Of a stretch of DNA of 54,227 nucleotides, positions 7,520 through 48,787 are shown in pieces. The DNA is taken from positions 1 through 54,227 of the IMG/VR virus record IMGVR_UViG_3300032249_000551. One strand, given 5' to 3'. The DNA is from a virus (taxonomy: Duplodnaviria; Caudoviricetes). The notes beneath the pieces are model-generated. The model was not told the origin of the DNA. It ran no database searches and saw only the letters and a program-made list of their open reading frames with translations. Positions within the stretch are counted from its first letter, which is position 1, and each line of letters opens with the position of its first letter. Position numbers and translations under genes: made by a program.

Positions 7520-7939
7520 TTAGATACGTCCGCCATCTCGTCCATTTTTGACGTAAGACTCTTTGCTAGGGTCAAACTCAGGAAAACTTCTTTTTATAGC
7601 TTTTAGATTATCATCTTGACCAAGTACTGAGGCGACTTGACCCTTAACTTTGAAAGCTTTGCCCGCAAAGATGGTCTTATCACCATGAGCGTTCTTAGGA
7701 AACTCAGTTCCCTCAGCAGGCTCTACCTCATAGACGTTGCCGTGGTGTACTGGGTACTCGCCACCGTCGTTTGCTCCGTAACCACTAATCACTCTACTTT
7801 GGGCGTGCTTAAGTGCGTAATCTAAATCAGAGGTAGCCCAAGCCGTTCCGTGCTCAGTTCTTGATTTAATAACATCCCCTGGCTTGAGAGTCTCAATGGT
7901 CCCGTGGAAGAGGGCGCTAGAGAGGTTATTCTGACTCAT
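7520..7939 (-). CDS. Arr-like (rifampin ADP-ribosyltransferase fold) ADP-ribosyltransferase
   Basis: LFHGT...LKPGDVI, AWATSDLDYA..HA, GNVYEVEP: motif order of the Arr-type ART fold. Confidence 0.7.
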   Translation of the reverse strand: MSQNNLSSALFHGTIETLKPGDVIKSRTEHGTAWATSDLDYALKHAQSRVISGYGANDGGEYPVHHGNVYEVEPAEGTEFPKNAHGDKTIFAGKAFKVKGQVASVLGQDDNLKAIKRSFPEFDPSKESYVKNGRDGGRI

Positions 7940-7964
7940 AAGCCAATATTACGGCTACTGCCTT
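7940..7964 (-). promoter_or_regulatory. Leaderless promoter: AAGGCAGTAGCC box + TAATAT -10
   Basis: Minus strand AAGGCAGTAGCC-G-TAATAT-TGGCTT-ATG. Confidence 0.6.
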
Positions 7965-8128
7965 ACTCTGTACCCCTCAACCATGGCTGAGCCCTGGGGG
8001 TTCCCTGCGGAAAACACGCTTAACTGTGGGGGTCATTTGTGCCAAAAGATTATTATTTATTAACGATTACATTCACAACTTGTTTCTTAAAGAAGTATTT
8101 ATTGTTCTATCTCCGCATAAATAATTAA

Positions 8129-8592
8129 AATAACTATTGTTTGATAGCAACTTTGATAGCGAGATTAAATAACTATTGGCTACTGCTTATTTTTATCGCA
8201 ATCTTTGTGCGGATACCACCAGACTAAACACCAACTTTGCAAGTTGTAATCAGGTATAAACAACTAACTAAATACATTGTGTATCACTAACTATTTACTA
8301 TGTGATTACAAGTTATGTATTCAATAGTTATGTAAATACATTCATTCATCACACTAATAACTATTCTCTTATCTATCTCTTATTACTTATTCTCTTATGT
8401 ATTTATTACTACTCATTGTTCTTTTGCATAAGGGGGCTACGCCCCCTTGCACCCCCACTCATTCGCAATAGTTATTAGCACTTGCAATCTGCAAACAGAT
8501 AGTTAAAGAAACAACTAACAATAAATAACTATTAACTAATCTTCTTTTACTTGACACTTCAGTTATTCCTGCACCTTCTATTAAATAACTAT
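8129..8592. repeat. Dispersed AATAACTAT repeats in AT-rich non-coding DNA
   Basis: Direct copies at 8129, 8168, 8356, 8524, 8584; inverted ATAGTTAT at 8324 and 8468. Confidence 0.7.
8430..8448. other. GC-rich hairpin AAGGGGGC-TAC-GCCCCCTT in AT-rich DNA
   Basis: Perfect 8-bp inverted repeat followed by GCACCCCC. Confidence 0.75.
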
Positions 8593-8785
8593 CTATAACT
8601 TCTTTTGTATTTGTTTCTTATTTAATTTATCTGTTACTACTTATGTTTATTTATTCTTTTGTTATTACTGAAAATAAATACACAAAATAACTTTGCGTTT
8701 CTTCTTTTGTATCTCTTATCTATCTACGGACAGCGCACCGAATTACTCATAAAAAATTGCGTTATTTATGCGTAAGACACGCGAG

Positions 8786-8815
8786 TTGCAGACCCCTGCC
8801 CCTATCTGTTACGCT
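8786..8815 (+). promoter_or_regulatory. Sigma-A/70-type promoter of the plus-strand block
   Basis: TTGCAG (8786) - 18 bp - TACGCT (8810) with extended TGn; predicted TSS near 8822. Confidence 0.6.
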
Positions 8816-8821
8816 TGCGCC

Positions 8822-9200
8822 AGCAAGTTGCTCTCCCGAATGGGACAGGCGGTTAGCGAAATAAACAAAAGTTAGTTTTGTTTTTTTATTTTGTATGCAA
8901 CGCAATCGTGTGCGTTATTAAATAAAACAAAATAAATAAATACAAACTTCTTTTGTGCAAACTCGCTACGAAATTATTTACTGCTTGTATGTATTACATA
9001 CAACACTTCAAGTGTGCAAGTGGTAAATAAAAATAGAAACTATAAATTGAATGATGTAATAACTACGCAACTGCGACAAACTCAAATGGTTATTACTAAG
9101 TGACATTGTTTCTATCTTGCAAATTATTTAATTACATTCTGCTATTCACTAATTGTTATGAGCGATTAGTGAATAGCGGTGTGCAATTAACTTGCACTAA
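8822..9200 (+). ncRNA. Putative structured leader/ncRNA (about 380 nt, four consecutive long stems)
   Basis: Stems 8854-8968, 8974-9030, 9033-9115 and 9118-9196; the last has a 17-bp core with G-U pairs on the plus strand; no ORF. Confidence 0.6.
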
Positions 9201-9231
9201 CAACTAACAACTAATACGAATGGAGTAACAA

Positions 9232-9621
9232 ATGACAACAACAACTATCGCACCTGTAATCACTAACACAACAACACGACAGACAGATAGAAAACAAAAA
9301 CACACAATTACTTTCAACGATAAGTTTCGTGTGAATGTTACAACTATTCACGACAAAGAACGCAAGGCGTATCGCACTTATGTTTCTGTTGTTACTTTTG
9401 AGATTAGTAACAACTTTGTTATTGAGAAGTCAATCGGTTCTATCTTTGGTGGTTTGTACGCAACTGTTATTCGCACTACGCCATGCAATCGTTTCTCTCA
9501 ATCTTCTTTTGACATTGAGTGTGCAAATGCTCGCAACGATTACAACGCACTTAGCGGTCACTATGAACAACAAATAACTGCACTACTAAACGACAAGGAG
9601 TTACTAAGTGAAACTAATTAA
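9232..9621 (+). CDS. Hypothetical protein, first gene of plus-strand block
   Basis: 129 aa; GGAG RBS preceded by CAACTAA repeats. Confidence 0.8.
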   Translation: MTTTTIAPVITNTTTRQTDRKQKHTITFNDKFRVNVTTIHDKERKAYRTYVSVVTFEISNNFVIEKSIGSIFGGLYATVIRTTPCNRFSQSSFDIECANARNDYNALSGHYEQQITALLNDKELLSETN

Positions 9622-9751
9622 ACGATTACTAATTGCAATCATCTTTATCGTTGTTATTGCTTTCTTGTTTGATGTAACAACACCTGCTGAGTGCAAAAAT
9701 AAATCGGTTGAACAACTATCTCAATTCTGCATTGACCTTCTTTATCCTTAA
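9608..9751 (+). CDS. Small membrane protein (47 aa)
   Basis: GTG start with AAGGAG RBS; MKLIKRLLIAIIFIVVIAFLFDVTTPAECKNKSVEQLSQFCIDLLYP. Confidence 0.65.
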   Translation: MKLIKRLLIAIIFIVVIAFLFDVTTPAECKNKSVEQLSQFCIDLLYP

Positions 9752-9797
9752 TCACTTGCAATCTTCTTTAACAACTAATAAGAAACGGAGTAAATAA

Positions 9798-9911
9798 ATG
9801 TCAGTACCTACCGCAACAATAGATGAACAAGGCGTGACTATTTTCTTTGATGAAGATGTTACTTCTTACTTCCAACTCGTATCGTTACTGAATAAAAAGG
9901 AGAATAAATAA
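9798..9911 (+). CDS. Small hypothetical protein (37 aa)
   Basis: ACGGAG RBS and the shared start-associated motif. Confidence 0.55.
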   Translation: MSVPTATIDEQGVTIFFDEDVTSYFQLVSLLNKKENK

Positions 9912-10172
9912 ATGCGAATTAAAATCGTTAAAGATAATCACCCAAGCAACGAAGAACTAATTACTTCAATGTTAATTGCAATTCAATTCTTAAATCCTGA
10001 ACACGAAAAAGAAGATGTGTTATCGGGTGTCTTGCAATTACTAAGTGAAATCGTTGATAGAAAGAAACTTCTTTTACTTGCAGATAGCGTGTGCAATTCT
10101 GCAAGTAATAAGTTTGATGAAGTTAAATCGCTATACGAAATGTTCCAACTAGACACCGACATAAACAACTAA
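9912..10172 (+). CDS. Hypothetical protein
   Basis: 86 aa, AAGGAG RBS. Confidence 0.7.
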   Translation: MRIKIVKDNHPSNEELITSMLIAIQFLNPEHEKEDVLSGVLQLLSEIVDRKKLLLLADSVCNSASNKFDEVKSLYEMFQLDTDINN

Positions 10173-10197
10173 CAACTAACAGAAACGGAATAAATAA

Positions 10198-11556
10198 ATG
10201 ACATACGCAATTCTTATCTCAGGTCAAGTAAATACAACAGATACAAAGCAAGTAATTATCGCAAGTCATAACGGCAACACTCATACCTTCATGCGTGTAA
10301 CAAATGGTGGTCGTGGTGAAAGTAATTCATGGAGTGCAAGAGAGTTAGATGAACACAACTCAATCGGCACACTTGATTACAACTTAATTGGTGAAGTGCT
10401 ATCAACACCACTAACAAGTGTTGATGAAGTTGCACTTAACAATAACGAGATACCAAATGTTTTAATACAGAAACTTACAAAGCAGTATCGCTTACGCAAT
10501 CTAACAATAGATACAACACGCACTATCCAAAGTGTTGTTGATGAAGTGCAGGTACTAATTGAACAAGACCCTGCACTATTAAGTAAGTATCGCTCTGACG
10601 GCAGAAGCGATAAGCACGCCACAACTAAGACCGAAGGGACAAAACAAATGACACCACGCAACACAATCAACCCAATCGCTAACGAAGCAATAGTGATTAA
10701 CAAAGTAGAACGCAACGATAAAGAAGAACGCACACTTGCGTTCATACCTTCTTTAACAAGTGAAGCGGTACGCACTTATGTACCACGCACTTTCGCTGGC
10801 AACTTAACAGAAGACCAACTCTATACATACGCATTGAAGTCAAAGAAGAATGTATCTATTCAAGGTCATGCAGGTACAGGCAAGACAACTTCTTTAATGA
10901 CATTCTCTGCAAAGAATGGTTTGGAGTTTGGTTCAATGAGTTGTAATGCAGGTGTAGAGCCTTCACAATTCTTTGGTCGTTATGTTCCAAATGCAGAAGG
11001 TAAGTTGGAATGGCGTGACGGATTATTTACGCACTTCTTTCGTAATGGTGGAGTGTTAGTAATTGACGAAGCGAACTTTCTTCCACAGAAAATTGCTTCT
11101 GTATTACATGGTGTTCTTGACGACCGCCGAGTATTAACTTTGTTAGAGCATGACGGCGAAGTTATTACTGCAAATGAAAACTTACTTATCGCTATGTGCT
11201 ACAACGACGGCTACAAAGGTACTTCTAAGTTTAACGAAGCGTTCGCAGACCGCTTTTGGATTAAGTTAAACTTTGAGTACGACACCGACATTGAAAAGAA
11301 GTTTATTCCTTCTAAAACTTTGTTGGAACTTGCAACTTCAATGCGAGCAGACACAATCGCTGGCACTTATGAAACACCTGTATCAACTCGTTTGCTAAAG
11401 CAGTTTGTTGATTTAGCACAGAACCTTAGTTACGACTTTGCAGTTGATAACTTTGTTAATAACTTCCGCGAAGATGAACGCTCTAGCGTGAAACTTCTTT
11501 TGGACTCTCAACGACACAACTTGGAACTAGAACTTATCGGAAAGGTGAGTGAGTGA
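10198..11556 (+). CDS. MoxR/CbbQ/CobS-type AAA+ ATPase
   Basis: Walker A GHAGTGKT, Walker B LVIDEAN, W.DG motif, NEAFADRF, VSTR sensor 2; about 150-aa N-terminal extension. Confidence 0.9.
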   Translation: MTYAILISGQVNTTDTKQVIIASHNGNTHTFMRVTNGGRGESNSWSARELDEHNSIGTLDYNLIGEVLSTPLTSVDEVALNNNEIPNVLIQKLTKQYRLRNLTIDTTRTIQSVVDEVQVLIEQDPALLSKYRSDGRSDKHATTKTEGTKQMTPRNTINPIANEAIVINKVERNDKEERTLAFIPSLTSEAVRTYVPRTFAGNLTEDQLYTYALKSKKNVSIQGHAGTGKTTSLMTFSAKNGLEFGSMSCNAGVEPSQFFGRYVPNAEGKLEWRDGLFTHFFRNGGVLVIDEANFLPQKIASVLHGVLDDRRVLTLLEHDGEVITANENLLIAMCYNDGYKGTSKFNEAFADRFWIKLNFEYDTDIEKKFIPSKTLLELATSMRADTIAGTYETPVSTRLLKQFVDLAQNLSYDFAVDNFVNNFREDERSSVKLLLDSQRHNLELELIGKVSE

Positions 11557-19242: not shown

Positions 19243-19288
19243 AAAGGGGATAGGTTGCCAACTGGCAATCTATCCCCTTTTTTGTTTT
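19243..19288 (+). terminator. Rho-independent terminator
   Basis: GGGGATAGGTTGCCA/TGGCAATCTATCCCC stem followed by T-tract. Confidence 0.85.
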
Positions 19289-21207: not shown

Positions 21208-21252
21208 TCGTAGCCAAAGCAAAAGCCATAGCAAAAGCAGGTGCATAATAGG

Positions 21253-21285
21253 AAGCCCCCTCAGAAATGAGGGGGTTTTCTTTTT
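21253..21285 (+). terminator. Rho-independent terminator
   Basis: GCCCCCTCA-GAAA-TGAGGGGGT + T-tract. Confidence 0.85.
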
Positions 21286-21915: not shown

Positions 21916-21950
21916 AAGAAGCCCCCCAAATAACTGGGGGGCTTTTTCTT
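21916..21950. terminator. Bidirectional terminator between convergent gene blocks
   Basis: AAGAAGCCCCCCA-AATAAC-TGGGGGGCTTTTTCTT. Confidence 0.8.
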
Positions 21951-24233: not shown

Positions 24234-25742
24234 CTAGTCTTCTAGTGAAGACTGAATAATTTTTGTGACTGTATCTTCTTTTAAGGCTTGAGGTAACTCT
24301 CTTAGAGCTTGAGCTTTGTCTCCGAAGATAGCGGAAAGAACTCCACCAGCGCCTTGACGCTGTGCTGTAATCTGAATGAACTCTTTGTCCGAGGCCATGT
24401 CGTTAACTTCTTTAACCATTTTGATTAGGCGGTCAACTTCTTGAGAGACGTTTGGGTCTGCGTATCCACCGTTCATTTCTTCAGCAAAACGCATAAAAGC
24501 AACTCTTTGACCCTGCATTTCAATCATTGAGGTCATCAAAGCCTTGAGTTGGTCTTTGGTTTTGACTTCAATAGGGAGGTTGAAGGCACACGTATTTAAG
24601 GGTTTGAAGGCTGGACAGTTGGCAGCTACAAAGCAAGTGTCACACTGTCTTAAAGAAGATTGCTGGGTTTGTACTACTGGGATATCCATCAGGACGTCTT
24701 TGCCGTCATCGTCTGTTTCAACAACAGTCTTCATCTTGTATCCAAAAACAGGTAGGTTCTGAACCTCTGAAGGGTCTCTTTGGACTACTTCTTGACGCTC
24801 AAGTTTCCGCATCTCAGAGACACTGTTATCAGAAAGTACCCCCCCTAGTTCCATCAAACCACTCATGAGTGGTGTGTCACTGTTATCAGATACTTTGCCT
24901 TCTTTACCCCCATCAATGATGTGGAAATTAGGTGTTTTCTTGTCCATGGATGCCTCTAACTGTAGGTATGACCAGACCGCAACTCTAGTCGCTTCAAGGG
25001 TGTTATCTTGGCTAAACCCCAAATAGTCTAACCCTGCCTTCTCTACAATGCGCTTGTAGCGAGGGCGTGCTTGGTCTTTCATGCGCTTTGGGTAACGCTT
25101 AATTTGGGCGCCATCCCATACAATTGTTTCGCCTCTTCGCATTGGGCTAAGCCATGACAATGTGCTGGCAGTGCTAAATGGTACCTGTCGGATGTTGTCT
25201 GGCTTGGCACAGGCAAGGGCGTGGTACTGAGTCCCAAACTGCCTCTGGTAGCCCCGTGTGAGGGCTGCTAGGCTGGTTACAGACTCAATCTCGTCGTTGG
25301 GTATAACTACGTTCTGGTAGGTCTGAGACATTAGTTTAAGGGATGGCAGACCGTACTCTTCATGCCAGACTACCCAGAACTTAGGGTCGTGCTCATAAAA
25401 GGGTCTCTGGGCTTCTACCCAATCCTTGCCTAAAACCATAGAGTCAAACTCCATAAAGGCTGATGCTCTCTCAGAGTTATCCACAAGGAACTCTTGGTAA
25501 TCAGCGGCTAAAGAAGTTAATTCTTCTTTTGACAGTCCTGCTTTGTCAGCTTGAGCTGCACCAGACTCAATGAACACCTGGGTGTCGGCATCAAAGTGCT
25601 CGCTAATCAACCATCTTTTGGTAGTGGGCAAACCTCTTTTGCGTAACGTCCAAAAGTTGAGTCCCATTGACTCAACCTTGGAACCAAAAAGAAGATTGCG
25701 GTTGGAGCCTACTTCAGCCCCGCTAAAGATGACACGCATCAA
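24234..25742 (-). CDS. Possible TGT/DpdA-like TIM-barrel protein (degenerate motifs) fused to a C-terminal Cys4 domain
   Basis: VFIESGA, EFDS, YHALAC and ASTLSW line up with the DSG, xD, HxxG and DSxSW motifs of phage queuine-tRNA-ribosyltransferase-like proteins; CDTC....CP......C. Confidence 0.45.
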   Translation of the reverse strand: MMRVIFSGAEVGSNRNLLFGSKVESMGLNFWTLRKRGLPTTKRWLISEHFDADTQVFIESGAAQADKAGLSKEELTSLAADYQEFLVDNSERASAFMEFDSMVLGKDWVEAQRPFYEHDPKFWVVWHEEYGLPSLKLMSQTYQNVVIPNDEIESVTSLAALTRGYQRQFGTQYHALACAKPDNIRQVPFSTASTLSWLSPMRRGETIVWDGAQIKRYPKRMKDQARPRYKRIVEKAGLDYLGFSQDNTLEATRVAVWSYLQLEASMDKKTPNFHIIDGGKEGKVSDNSDTPLMSGLMELGGVLSDNSVSEMRKLERQEVVQRDPSEVQNLPVFGYKMKTVVETDDDGKDVLMDIPVVQTQQSSLRQCDTCFVAANCPAFKPLNTCAFNLPIEVKTKDQLKALMTSMIEMQGQRVAFMRFAEEMNGGYADPNVSQEVDRLIKMVKEVNDMASDKEFIQITAQRQGAGGVLSAIFGDKAQALRELPQALKEDTVTKIIQSSLED

Positions 25743-47803: not shown

Positions 47804-48787
47804 TTAGTTCTCCTTGCCTTTCAATCGTTTTTCATGTCGCTCTAGTTGTGCACGTCCACTCAAAGAGTTCTGGAACACACGACCGTCACTGGAGATGAGA
47901 GTACCAGATGCTGGAGCCGTCTCAATCTTAGCAGTAACTTTGTTAAGTCCTAGGTTTTCTCTTGCTTGGTTCATCTTCGTGCCGAAGGAGGCTAGGTACT
48001 TCTTGTAAAGGTGAGGAGCCTCGTCCCCAATGTCTTTGAAGTTACGCTCATCCTGCAGGAACAGCCGAAGCAATTCAAGCTCTATGAGCGGGGTTGTTCC
48101 GTACTGTGAGCGGAACTTTCGGAGTGCGCCTGATAGCGATTTGACGGATACAGTTCCTGGAAGTAGCGGGTATTTACGGCCCACTTGGTAACTAAACTCT
48201 GCAGCAACGTCCATCGCTGTCCACTCGTGCTCTGGTCGCTTTCCACGGGTCTTTGGGTCTGACTTACGGACTTTAGGCTGTGGCGCATCCTTGGGTTCAA
48301 TAAGCCCAAAGCCAACCAAATCTTCCGAATCATCGGCGTAGTTTCTCATAGGAACCTTTATTTCTTTAGTGAAACCTTCGGTTTCAGATTCTTTTAATTT
48401 ATAACTAGCTTTACTACTATGGCTATTAGGTACTAATGGTCTAGTAGCTATATAGCTAGGGTGGCTATTAGTCACGTAGTCATGTGAGGTGCGGTAATTT
48501 TTTACCAACTTCTCATCCACATGTTGGTAATTTTTTACCAATATCTTTTTCTTTCCTTGGTAACCGTTTGCCCGCTTACTGGTCTGTGTGGCTATTAGCC
48601 CAACACCCTCTAGCCCCTTGAGGGCGCTACGGACCGTCTTGTCGCTTGATTTGCCAGTCTCTACACAGAGCTGGGCTACTGTGGTCTCTACGAGCCCGCC
48701 AGGGCCCGCAAAACGGCACAGTATGGCAAAGAGACGGAACTGAAAATCAGTTATCTTGGCTGAATAAGCCTCTAGCGGGATGTACAC
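47804..48787 (-). CDS. Putative replication initiator (N-terminal winged HTH, lambda O-like arrangement)
   Basis: LFAILC...T..QL..ETG..SDKTVRSALKGLE..GLI; internal DNA repeats; upstream of a DnaC-like loader. Confidence 0.65.
   Translation of the reverse strand: MYIPLEAYSAKITDFQFRLFAILCRFAGPGGLVETTVAQLCVETGKSSDKTVRSALKGLEGVGLIATQTSKRANGYQGKKKILVKNYQHVDEKLVKNYRTSHDYVTNSHPSYIATRPLVPNSHSSKASYKLKESETEGFTKEIKVPMRNYADDSEDLVGFGLIEPKDAPQPKVRKSDPKTRGKRPEHEWTAMDVAAEFSYQVGRKYPLLPGTVSVKSLSGALRKFRSQYGTTPLIELELLRLFLQDERNFKDIGDEAPHLYKKYLASFGTKMNQARENLGLNKVTAKIETAPASGTLISSDGRVFQNSLSGRAQLERHEKRLKGKEN
48372..48599. repeat. Iteron-like repeats and palindromes inside the initiator gene (putative origin)
   Basis: GGTAATTTTTTACCAA at 48493 and 48526, variant GGTAACCGTTTGCCC at 48559 (33-bp period); GGCTATTAG x3; TAGCTATATAGCTA palindrome; GAAACC-TTC-GGTTTC. 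Confidence 0.6.

Follow-up and report, generated by a model that had tools for sequence, protein, structure and literature searches.

A probable structured leader RNA, built as a chain of hairpins, at the head of a rightward operon in a large tailed phage

At the left end of phage T7, the promoters A1-A3 are followed by a leader, the RNase III site R0.3 and gene 0.3. In HK022, the put element consists of two adjacent stem-loops (~70 nt) that lie right after the promoter and act on downstream terminators, while leaders of the rrn/nut type carry a single-stranded boxA (E. coli consensus TGCTCTTTAACAA) beside a boxB hairpin. 6S RNA forms a rod of ~180 nt whose large central bubble resembles an open promoter. 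Structured RNAs of phages are nevertheless much less charted than phage proteins. Here we describe an untranslated leader at positions 8786-9231 of the viral record IMGVR_UViG_3300032249_000551 (Caudoviricetes), which was analysed over its whole length of 54,227 bases (the window). The locus has the same order of parts as the R0.3 leader of T7 and T3 and the N-leader of lambda pL, namely an early host-type promoter, a few hundred untranslated nucleotides, a long hairpin, the ribosome site of a small first gene and a polycistronic operon. We consider it likely that the leader is a real, selected structured RNA of the plus strand.

The folding of the leader was evaluated against 100 dinucleotide shuffles. 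The plus-strand RNA of 8786-9231 folded to -129.9 kcal/mol, compared with -86.7 +/- 5.4 kcal/mol for the shuffled sequences (z -8.0), and none of the 100 shuffles was as good. An earlier note on this DNA had proposed a leader made almost wholly of hairpins, and that proposal withstood this comparison. The minus strand gave a z-score of -3.7. A non-coding control of equal size (7940-8385) gave -0.7 on the plus and -0.3 on the minus strand, a coding control (9232-9677) gave +1.1, and the adjoining upstream stretch (8340-8785, plus strand) gave -4.6.

Every stem named in the earlier note was found in the sequence, at most a base or two from the place given, and also belongs to the minimum-free-energy fold, on the plus strand throughout. 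The first, M1, is a small 5' hairpin, TCCC-GAAT-GGGA, at 8834-8845. It is followed by M2, an interrupted, GC-clamped and A/T-rich rod of 115 nt (8854-8968). In its clamp, TAGCGA (8854-8859) pairs with TCGCTA (8963-8968); the note had placed the first strand correctly, and the 8968 that it gave for the second is an end coordinate rather than a start. The rod is a near-continuous A-U helix with small internal loops, a single 11-nt bulge close to the apex and the apical hairpin AACGCA/TGCGTT. M3 (8974-9030) is a branched stem, whose outer arms are TTATTTAC (8974-8981) and GTAAATAA (9023-9030); this outer stem contains TTGTATG/CATACAA and CACTT/AAGTG. M4 (9033-9115) is a nested stem with the outer arms ATAGAAAC (9033-9040) and GTTTCTAT (9108-9115) and the inner stem GTAATAAC/GTTATTAC.

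The chain closes with a long perfect hairpin, H5. The 17-bp stem that had been noted is present as its core (9141-9157 with 9161-9177), but the full hairpin has 19 bp and a 3-nt loop (9139-9179), and lies 53 nt from the ATG at 9232. A further small hairpin that the note had not listed, H6 (GTGCAA-TTAAC-TTGCAC, 9181-9197, pairing 9181-9186 with 9192-9197), was seen by folding and alignment. H6 is an alternative pairing, as the RNA minimum-energy fold of the window prolongs H5 outwards instead, to ~26 bp with internal loops. The remaining segment up to the gene (9198-9231) is C/A-rich (CTAACAACTAACAACTAATACGAAT), with the Shine-Dalgarno sequence GGAG at 9222-9225, and was predicted to be unpaired, in line with the unstructured leader that the note had described.

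To examine conservation, homologous regions were gathered from viral and metagenome contigs through the neighbouring proteins and two conserved DNA patterns, and chance matches were removed by context. This gave 15 full-length leaders (the window included) and several partial ones. A 19-mer from the rod clamp found 7 stretches in viral contigs, one of which (L028) is a chance match within a GC-rich coding region. The H5 pattern found 64 stretches in metagenome contigs; 12 were homologues by context (L034, L038, L040, L041, L043, L060, L065, L068, L072, L077, L084 and L087) and 52 were chance matches. The same pattern gave 2 stretches among prokaryotic genomes taken one per species, both in unrelated context, and so neither a prophage nor a clue to the host. 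A blastn search in distant mode with 7900-9700 found no match among 50,697 phage records.

The region proved to be mosaic. Nearly all relatives could be aligned over the left part of the gene-free stretch and over the final 90 bases, and the middle splits into types. Type A comprises the window, L006, L008, L041, L065, L068, L084 and L087; type B comprises L012, L015, L016 and L072; type C is L003, and type D is L024 and L040. L009 stands apart as a more distant relative, with a neighbouring gene that is only 45% identical. The untranslated leader measures 330-545 nt across the full-length set, with 356-545 untranslated bases counted downstream of the promoter, and none of the small open reading frames in the 15 leaders is conserved. 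Types A, B and D and L009 share one order of elements: a CCC...GGG hairpin, a clamped rod, further hairpins, H5, a small hairpin, and an open C/A-rich leader with the ribosome site. The rods in this order have a G+C clamp of 5-8 bp and long A/T-rich arms. L009 thus keeps the order with other sequences. Type C is also strongly folded, but has no A/T-rich rod. In type B and L009, a long-range helix encloses the hairpins that follow the rod, and closes the first 260-370 nt into a single domain. Among the relatives, modules are swapped, lost or shortened as whole hairpins, and each remains a hairpin. Even close relatives, with a neighbouring ATPase that is 96% identical, have lost or replaced entire modules. 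The architecture has outlasted deep divergence, even as hairpin modules swap among close relatives.

H5 is the most conserved element, and is always found immediately ahead of the unstructured leader. In 17 distinct sequences, 99.4% of its cells were paired, and 6 of the 19 pairs had changed on both sides. None of 500 shuffles reached this paired share or the covariation score, and partners slid by 1-3 columns paired in 35-54% of cells. The distant L009 has a hairpin of 16-20 bp with a different sequence in the position of H5. H6 was 83.3% paired in fixed register; where it has been replaced it still pairs, as GTGTGT/ACACAC in L003 and GAGTAG/CTACTC in L024.

The consensus fold of the four type B sequences has 75 pairs, 99.0% of them formed (slid controls 30-41%), and 17 changed on both sides, 8 of these falling in one long-range helix. 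When the fold of 8786-9231 was applied to the eight type A sequences, its 129 pairs were 89.8% paired, as against 35-48% in slid controls, and 9 had changed on both sides. The reading as a structured leader was not overturned by the covariation test, in which H5 gave the clearest answer.

The individual modules differ in how they are kept. M1 was 96.9% paired in the eight type A sequences, with a variable loop (GAAT, TCGC), and an equivalent CCC...GGG hairpin takes its place in types B and D and in L009. The M2 clamp is invariant and 100% paired in 8/8 type A sequences, and its apex changes from AACGCA/TGCGTT to AACGAA/TTCGTT in 5 sequences of that alignment; types B and D and L009 have GC-clamped rods of different sequence. 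The outer helix of M3 was 88.9% paired, with 3 pairs changed on both sides. In 5/8 type A sequences the interior of M3 is exchanged for another set of hairpins beneath the same outer stem, and there ACACC/GGTGT becomes ACACT/AGTGT. M4 has the character of an insertion/deletion module: L006 and L068 lack it, and L041 and L087 retain only a short hairpin (TAGAAAG-loop-CTTTCTA), in which a C-G pair has become G-C. The inner stem of M4 reads ACAATAAC/GTTATTGT in L008, with 2 pairs changed on both sides.

The strand was assessed in three ways. The earlier note had taken G-U pairs as favouring a plus-strand RNA, and this was borne out for H5, in which ~49 cells are G-U on the plus strand and 2 are non-pairs; on the opposite strand these G-U cells become A-C mismatches. 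Consensus-fold energies favoured the plus strand in all three alignments (plus/minus -69.8/-50.6, -32.0/-12.3 and -67.0/-51.4). Thirdly, 13 leaders differing in sequence (the window, 11 others and L009; L040, L068 and L087 were left out as near-copies of L024 and L041) had plus-strand z-scores from -3.7 to -10.6. The plus strand was the more extreme in 10 of the 13, tied in one (L006) and less extreme in two (L008 and L041).

A promoter-like site lies at the same position in 15/15 leaders. In the window it reads TTGCAG-18-TACGCT on the plus strand (-35 at 8786-8791, an 18-nt spacer, -10 at 8810-8815; 8786-8815 in all), with a predicted start at ~8822. All 15 leaders share the TTG of the -35 and have spacers of 17-18 nt; the -10 is TAnnnT in 10, CATAAT or CATACT in 3, and TCAATT in 2. 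The site is TTGACA-18-TACGCT in L003 and TTGCAT-18-GAGAAT in L009. At the other end, a C/A-rich linker and GGAG or GGAA precede the first gene in 15/15 leaders, and similar linkers lie between the downstream small genes. As the folds are better than chance and are kept across diverged relatives with a plus-strand signature, and as the promoter position is conserved, we take the folds to be selected as structure.

Several observations weigh against this conclusion. The promoter proposed in the earlier note kept its position, but matches the consensus at 6/12 positions and is not listed by a strict sigma-70 scan; the promoter call thus rests on positional conservation and not on strength. Counted over whole minimum-energy folds, G-U pairs had no steady plus-strand excess (plus vs minus, 3 vs 9 in L041 and 5 vs 10 in L024), and here the note's strand argument did not hold. 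It rests instead on H5, the consensus energies and the z-scores; the signature is solid only for the first two of these and for most of the z-scores. With DNA parameters, both strands folded about equally (z -7.4 and -6.7). The test structures of types A and B were derived from the same sequences on which they were scored, which favours them, and the measure of further pair types was no better than in shuffles (427/500 for H5, 88/500 for type B, 500/500 for type A). The A/T-rich middle of M2 was 73.4% paired in a fixed MAFFT alignment. Template-switch mutation in quasi-palindromes can also yield paired changes without selection. Finally, the only RNA-library run yielded a relative's contig of 452 nt, which aligns with 8593-8714 and 8805-8973 and runs across the proposed promoter. 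Its depth is similar to that of contigs on genes, and it may stem from DNA carry-over or from transcription that began further upstream. This run is the only one on record as RNA (a share of 0.07) among 20 sequencing runs that were considered, and contigs of this kind show presence but not strand, start or level, gaps in their cover being uninformative.

Some of these points would be expected if the hairpins were palindromes at the DNA level (i.e. cruciforms, symmetric protein sites, cassette recombination junctions, or repeats maintained by template switching, with no selection on RNA). Besides the equal folding of both strands with DNA parameters, H5 has an apical part whose conserved sequence (CACTAATTG...CAATTAGTG) is almost a perfect palindrome, and the locus forms a mosaic junction. 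The relatives L041 and L068 are nearly identical apart from the apical 13 bases of H5, which stand in opposite orientation, TTGCTAATAACAA in L041 (2341-2424) and TTGTTATTAGCAA in L068 (6737-6820); palindrome or template-switch events at the DNA level thus do occur here. However, the wobbles of H5 are nearly all G-T on the plus strand, and the consensus energies favour that strand as well. Sequence changes at the H5 base and in the type B long-range helix have preserved complementarity, which protein sites do not need. The different sequence of L009 in the H5 position and the conserved promoter directed into the element point the same way, and we regard an explanation by DNA palindromes as quite improbable.

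For the function of a plus-strand leader RNA, we tentatively favour a mechanism of processing or stability that involves H5, a reading that we consider plausible though short of probable. A transcript would start near 8822 from the host-type promoter, and its first ~300 nt would fold co-transcriptionally into the small GC hairpin, the GC-clamped A/U-rich rod, the branched stem and the nested stem. H5, ~50 nt ahead of the start codon, would then serve as a determinant of processing, stability or both, of the double-stranded-RNA (RNase III-site) type, and would detach the folded leader from the message or else cap the message on its 5' side. The unstructured C/A-rich segment after H5 would keep the ribosome site open, and the upstream folds may shield the long untranslated RNA against nucleases or Rho. 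This reading was suggested by the order of parts, which matches that of the T7 left end and the lambda pL N-leader. H5 provides a double-stranded helix of about two turns between promoter and first cistron, as at RNase III sites, and this was kept in 17/17 distinct sequences. Among the functions put forward in the earlier note, an RNase III processing site fits H5 best by this analogy. On the other side, a search for an RNase III domain gave none over cut-off in the 4 records searched (that of the window and 3 relatives). As no RNase III gene carried by the phage was found in these records, cleavage by RNase III is put forward by analogy only.

We also considered H5 as an intrinsic terminator or attenuator, and rejected this. 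H5 is followed by GGTGTGC and has no U-tract, whereas the phage terminators at 19243-19280 and 21250-21281 have T-runs; terminator-like sites in 7800-9400 numbered zero.

The most serious rival, though in our view an unlikely one, is a transcript-primed replication origin, in which the transcript, folded as a pre-primer or engaged in an R-loop at the A/T-rich rod, would prime rightward synthesis by the Pol I-type polymerase. An A/T-rich rod behind a promoter, comparable to origins with an unwinding element, occurs in types A, B and D and in L009, where the rod is ~90% A/T over 70-110 nt, but not in type C, which lacks such a rod. The phage encodes a PolA-type polymerase, a primase and a DnaB-like helicase, and a pre-primer would likewise depend on structure at the RNA level. 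The element sits at a divergent switch of transcription, and the minimum of the cumulative GC skew is nearby, at ~10 kb; the skew tracks gene orientation, however, and so cannot locate an origin alone. Six exact copies of AATAACTAT (five on the plus and one on the minus strand) lie at 8129-8592, 200-650 bp upstream, where 0.57 would be expected in the whole window. Against an origin, the replication-initiator-like gene is ~39 kb away (47804-48787), modules are lost or replaced among close relatives, and the element leads straight into a ribosome site and a gene.

With regard to the repeats themselves, looser copies of AATAACTAT are present too, and the array is iteron- or operator-like, with a direct repeat, TTTGATAGC, found twice at ~8141-8165. 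A complete relative with direct terminal repeats (G001, the record of L024) has the element at ~80.3-84.5 kb of 99,750 bases, ~16-19 kb from one end of the record, and the element is therefore not at a genome terminus.

Processive antitermination was evaluated next to the origin, as the earlier note had listed an antiterminator RNA. Here the nascent leader would bind RNA polymerase as put does, or recruit Nus factors as rrn/nut leaders do. Its placement right after the promoter of an operon of ~10 kb is that of put and nut sites, the long untranslated RNA would be exposed to Rho, and in a comparison with put as it is generally described, small hairpins do follow the promoter (8834-8845, then the rod). 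The motif CTTCTTT(T/A) recurs, and its copy at 9763-9775 (TCTTCTTTAACAA), which is intercistronic and outside the leader, is similar to the boxA of E. coli rrn, with agreement at 10-11 of 12-13 positions. The copy within the leader (CTTCTTTTG, 8946-8955) is base-paired in the rod and fits the E. coli boxA poorly, though the boxA of the host may differ. No strong intrinsic terminator was found on the plus strand between 9.2 and 19.2 kb. The idea is weakened by this lack of terminators in the first 10 kb of the operon and of a convincing unpaired boxA. Moreover, the element is 5 to 7 times the length of put, has no Rfam match, and differs in sequence between types, whereas sites that bind polymerase or Nus factors are usually conserved. 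We therefore hold antitermination to be improbable.

The motif was also recorded in its own right. In the form (A/T)CTTCTTT(T/A), it recurs on the plus strand at 8598, 8700, 8946, 9502, 9763 and 10067, in the gene-free stretch and intergenic gaps. Window-wide, motifs of the CTTCTTT type number 50 against 9.3 expected (one mismatch allowed), and most are the antisense of Lys/Glu codons.

A 6S-like decoy of RNA polymerase, made from the 115-nt rod, had also been suggested in the earlier note. The element does contain a long rod-shaped RNA close to a promoter. The rod, however, is almost wholly A-U and has no large central bubble resembling an open promoter, its middle is poorly conserved in register, and it is missing from type C; no 6S family of Rfam matched even at E values up to 10. 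This suggestion did not survive, and we give it practically no credence.

The leader could instead be a self-standing RNA that acts in trans. In one form, the multi-helix domain would be released (e.g. by a cut at H5) and act on host or phage factors, be it as a sponge, as a decoy bound by a defence or RNA-binding protein, or as an immunity or compatibility RNA, with the types as specificities. The retention of architecture with cassette-wise turnover of sequence in close relatives is as in arms-race or specificity loci. The domain that the long-range helix of type B and L009 forms from the first 260-370 nt is in keeping with this, and size and complexity resemble those of other large phage RNAs of unknown function. 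On the other hand, no terminator or defined 3' end is visible, and the present data do not separate a trans-acting RNA from a purely cis-acting leader; we judge this form unlikely. A broader proposal treats the leader as a large, modular, self-standing RNA, with a closed domain of ~300-400 nt released at H5 and working in trans as a replication pre-primer, a compatibility RNA or a decoy that draws off a host defence protein or an RNA-binding protein, and with the cassettes of types A-D setting phage or host specificity. It may be entertained, although we doubt it. If the leader did prime replication or work in trans, it would represent a new RNA-based function.

Database searches were in agreement with the earlier note, which had recognised no Rfam family. 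Rfam 15 gave no match in the whole window at gathering scores, and the loci of 8 relatives gave a single match, to a tRNA elsewhere. At E values up to 10, the region 8700-9300 had only hairpin-like matches (miRNA precursors and snoRNAs) with 9-23 bits, against gathering scores of 50-211. A scan for tRNA and tmRNA found none. In a narrow check of the literature, limited to listed entries and the openings of abstracts, no description of such an element was found. As judged from these sequence comparisons, the leader RNA belongs to no catalogued family.

The surroundings of the promoter contain further features. In type A, a palindrome, CTTGCG-NN-AGCAAG (8813-8826), overlaps the -10 and the predicted start. 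Directly 5' of the -35, most relatives (e.g. L008, L024 and L065) have either a pair of CACGCTCA boxes spaced by one helical turn or a hairpin of the form CCCAAAT...ATTTGGG; the window (8741-8785) and L084 have unrelated sequence there. The boxes, the hairpin and the palindrome are possible regulator sites. Further upstream, ~350-400 bp from the leader promoter, lies a GC-rich hairpin, AAGGGGGCTACGCCCCCTT (8430-8448), with no T-run on either side. It is kept in nearly all relatives, the distant L009 included, and may be an upstream transcript end or a protein site. A quick look at L017, L018 and L011 found no such GC hairpin, and a sliding fold of L018 had no obvious counterpart.

The record that makes up the window has an estimated completeness of 54%, and its gene content is that of a large tailed phage. 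Besides the Pol I-type polymerase, primase and helicase, it encodes a UvsX-like recombinase, a class II ribonucleotide reductase, a DpdA-like transglycosylase, baseplate proteins, an endolysin and an integrase. The closest match of the polymerase, from a Streptomyces phage, is 36.7% identical. By these comparisons, the phage, which comes from fresh water and is uncultured, appears to belong to a lineage that has no close cultured relative and is known solely from metagenomes. At 24234-25742 (minus strand), a 502-aa homologue of queuine tRNA-ribosyltransferase (PHROG 887, E 2.4e-57) suggests DpdA-type 7-deazaguanine modification of the phage DNA.

The leader forms the right-hand third of a gene-free stretch of 1.3 kb (7940-9231; 32% G+C). 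The genes to the left of this stretch form a leftward block that ends at 7939, and those to its right a rightward operon that begins at 9232. The first gene of this operon (9232-9621, plus strand) is an open reading frame of 129 aa that belongs to no family. It had no Pfam or PHROG match, and the small proteins flanking the leader gave nothing informative against Pfam at E values up to 0.5. Its homologues, at 7 viral loci, are 45-85% identical. The rest of the operon consists of small genes to which no role is assigned and an AAA_5 ATPase/VWA pair, and it is probably an early operon. Its first strong U-tract terminator is at 19243-19280. Around the integrase region, hairpins with T-runs are found at 19243-19280 (plus), 21250-21281 (plus) and 21919-21944 (minus); these indicate that canonical intrinsic terminators work in the host, and they delimit the ~10-kb operon at its end.

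The first genes after the leader vary among close relatives, with small genes inserted or exchanged (9232-10200 in the window; also in L008, L012, L015, L016 and L084). A common linker precedes each exchanged gene, consisting of ...CTTGCA..., CAACTAA repeats and then GAAACGGAG. In sequence, the region after the leader resembles a hypervariable early region whose genes are shuffled at conserved linkers.

When the leader is set beside the known systems, GOLLD and ROOL are like it in being large, multi-helix, phage-borne RNAs from lake metagenomes. The leader matches neither of them (at gathering score or at E values up to 10); it is smaller, is a simple chain of hairpins and has a fixed position as an operon leader. 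HK022 put and the boxA-boxB leaders of rrn and nut are similar as cis-acting nascent RNA right after early promoters, but those are ~70 nt or short linear conserved motifs, whereas this leader has 330-545 nt of variable sequence, no convincing boxA in its unpaired part and no internal terminators in the first 10 kb that follow. ColE1 RNA II, the T4 origins oriF and oriG and the primary origins of T7 resemble it in having a promoter-driven, stem-loop-rich RNA of several hundred nucleotides or a promoter with an A/T-rich stretch, and their transcript may double as message, as here. The locus differs from them in that one type has no A/T-rich rod and the initiator-like gene is distant.

The closest systems remain the early leaders of T7, T3 and lambda. 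There is no sequence similarity to these, and the processing role proposed here is by analogy. They differ also in architecture, as here hairpins that are conserved make up almost the whole leader, among them a GC-clamped A/U rod, together with closing helices of long range. H5, with its natural compensatory variants, offers a compact case that can be tested. Together, these comparisons have led us to conclude that the size, the architecture of a hairpin chain with a clamped rod and the modular turnover are new, and that a structured early leader with a double-stranded hairpin of the processing type has precedents. If the leader does act in processing or stability, the logic by which T7 and lambda control their early messages would extend to a very different group of phages.

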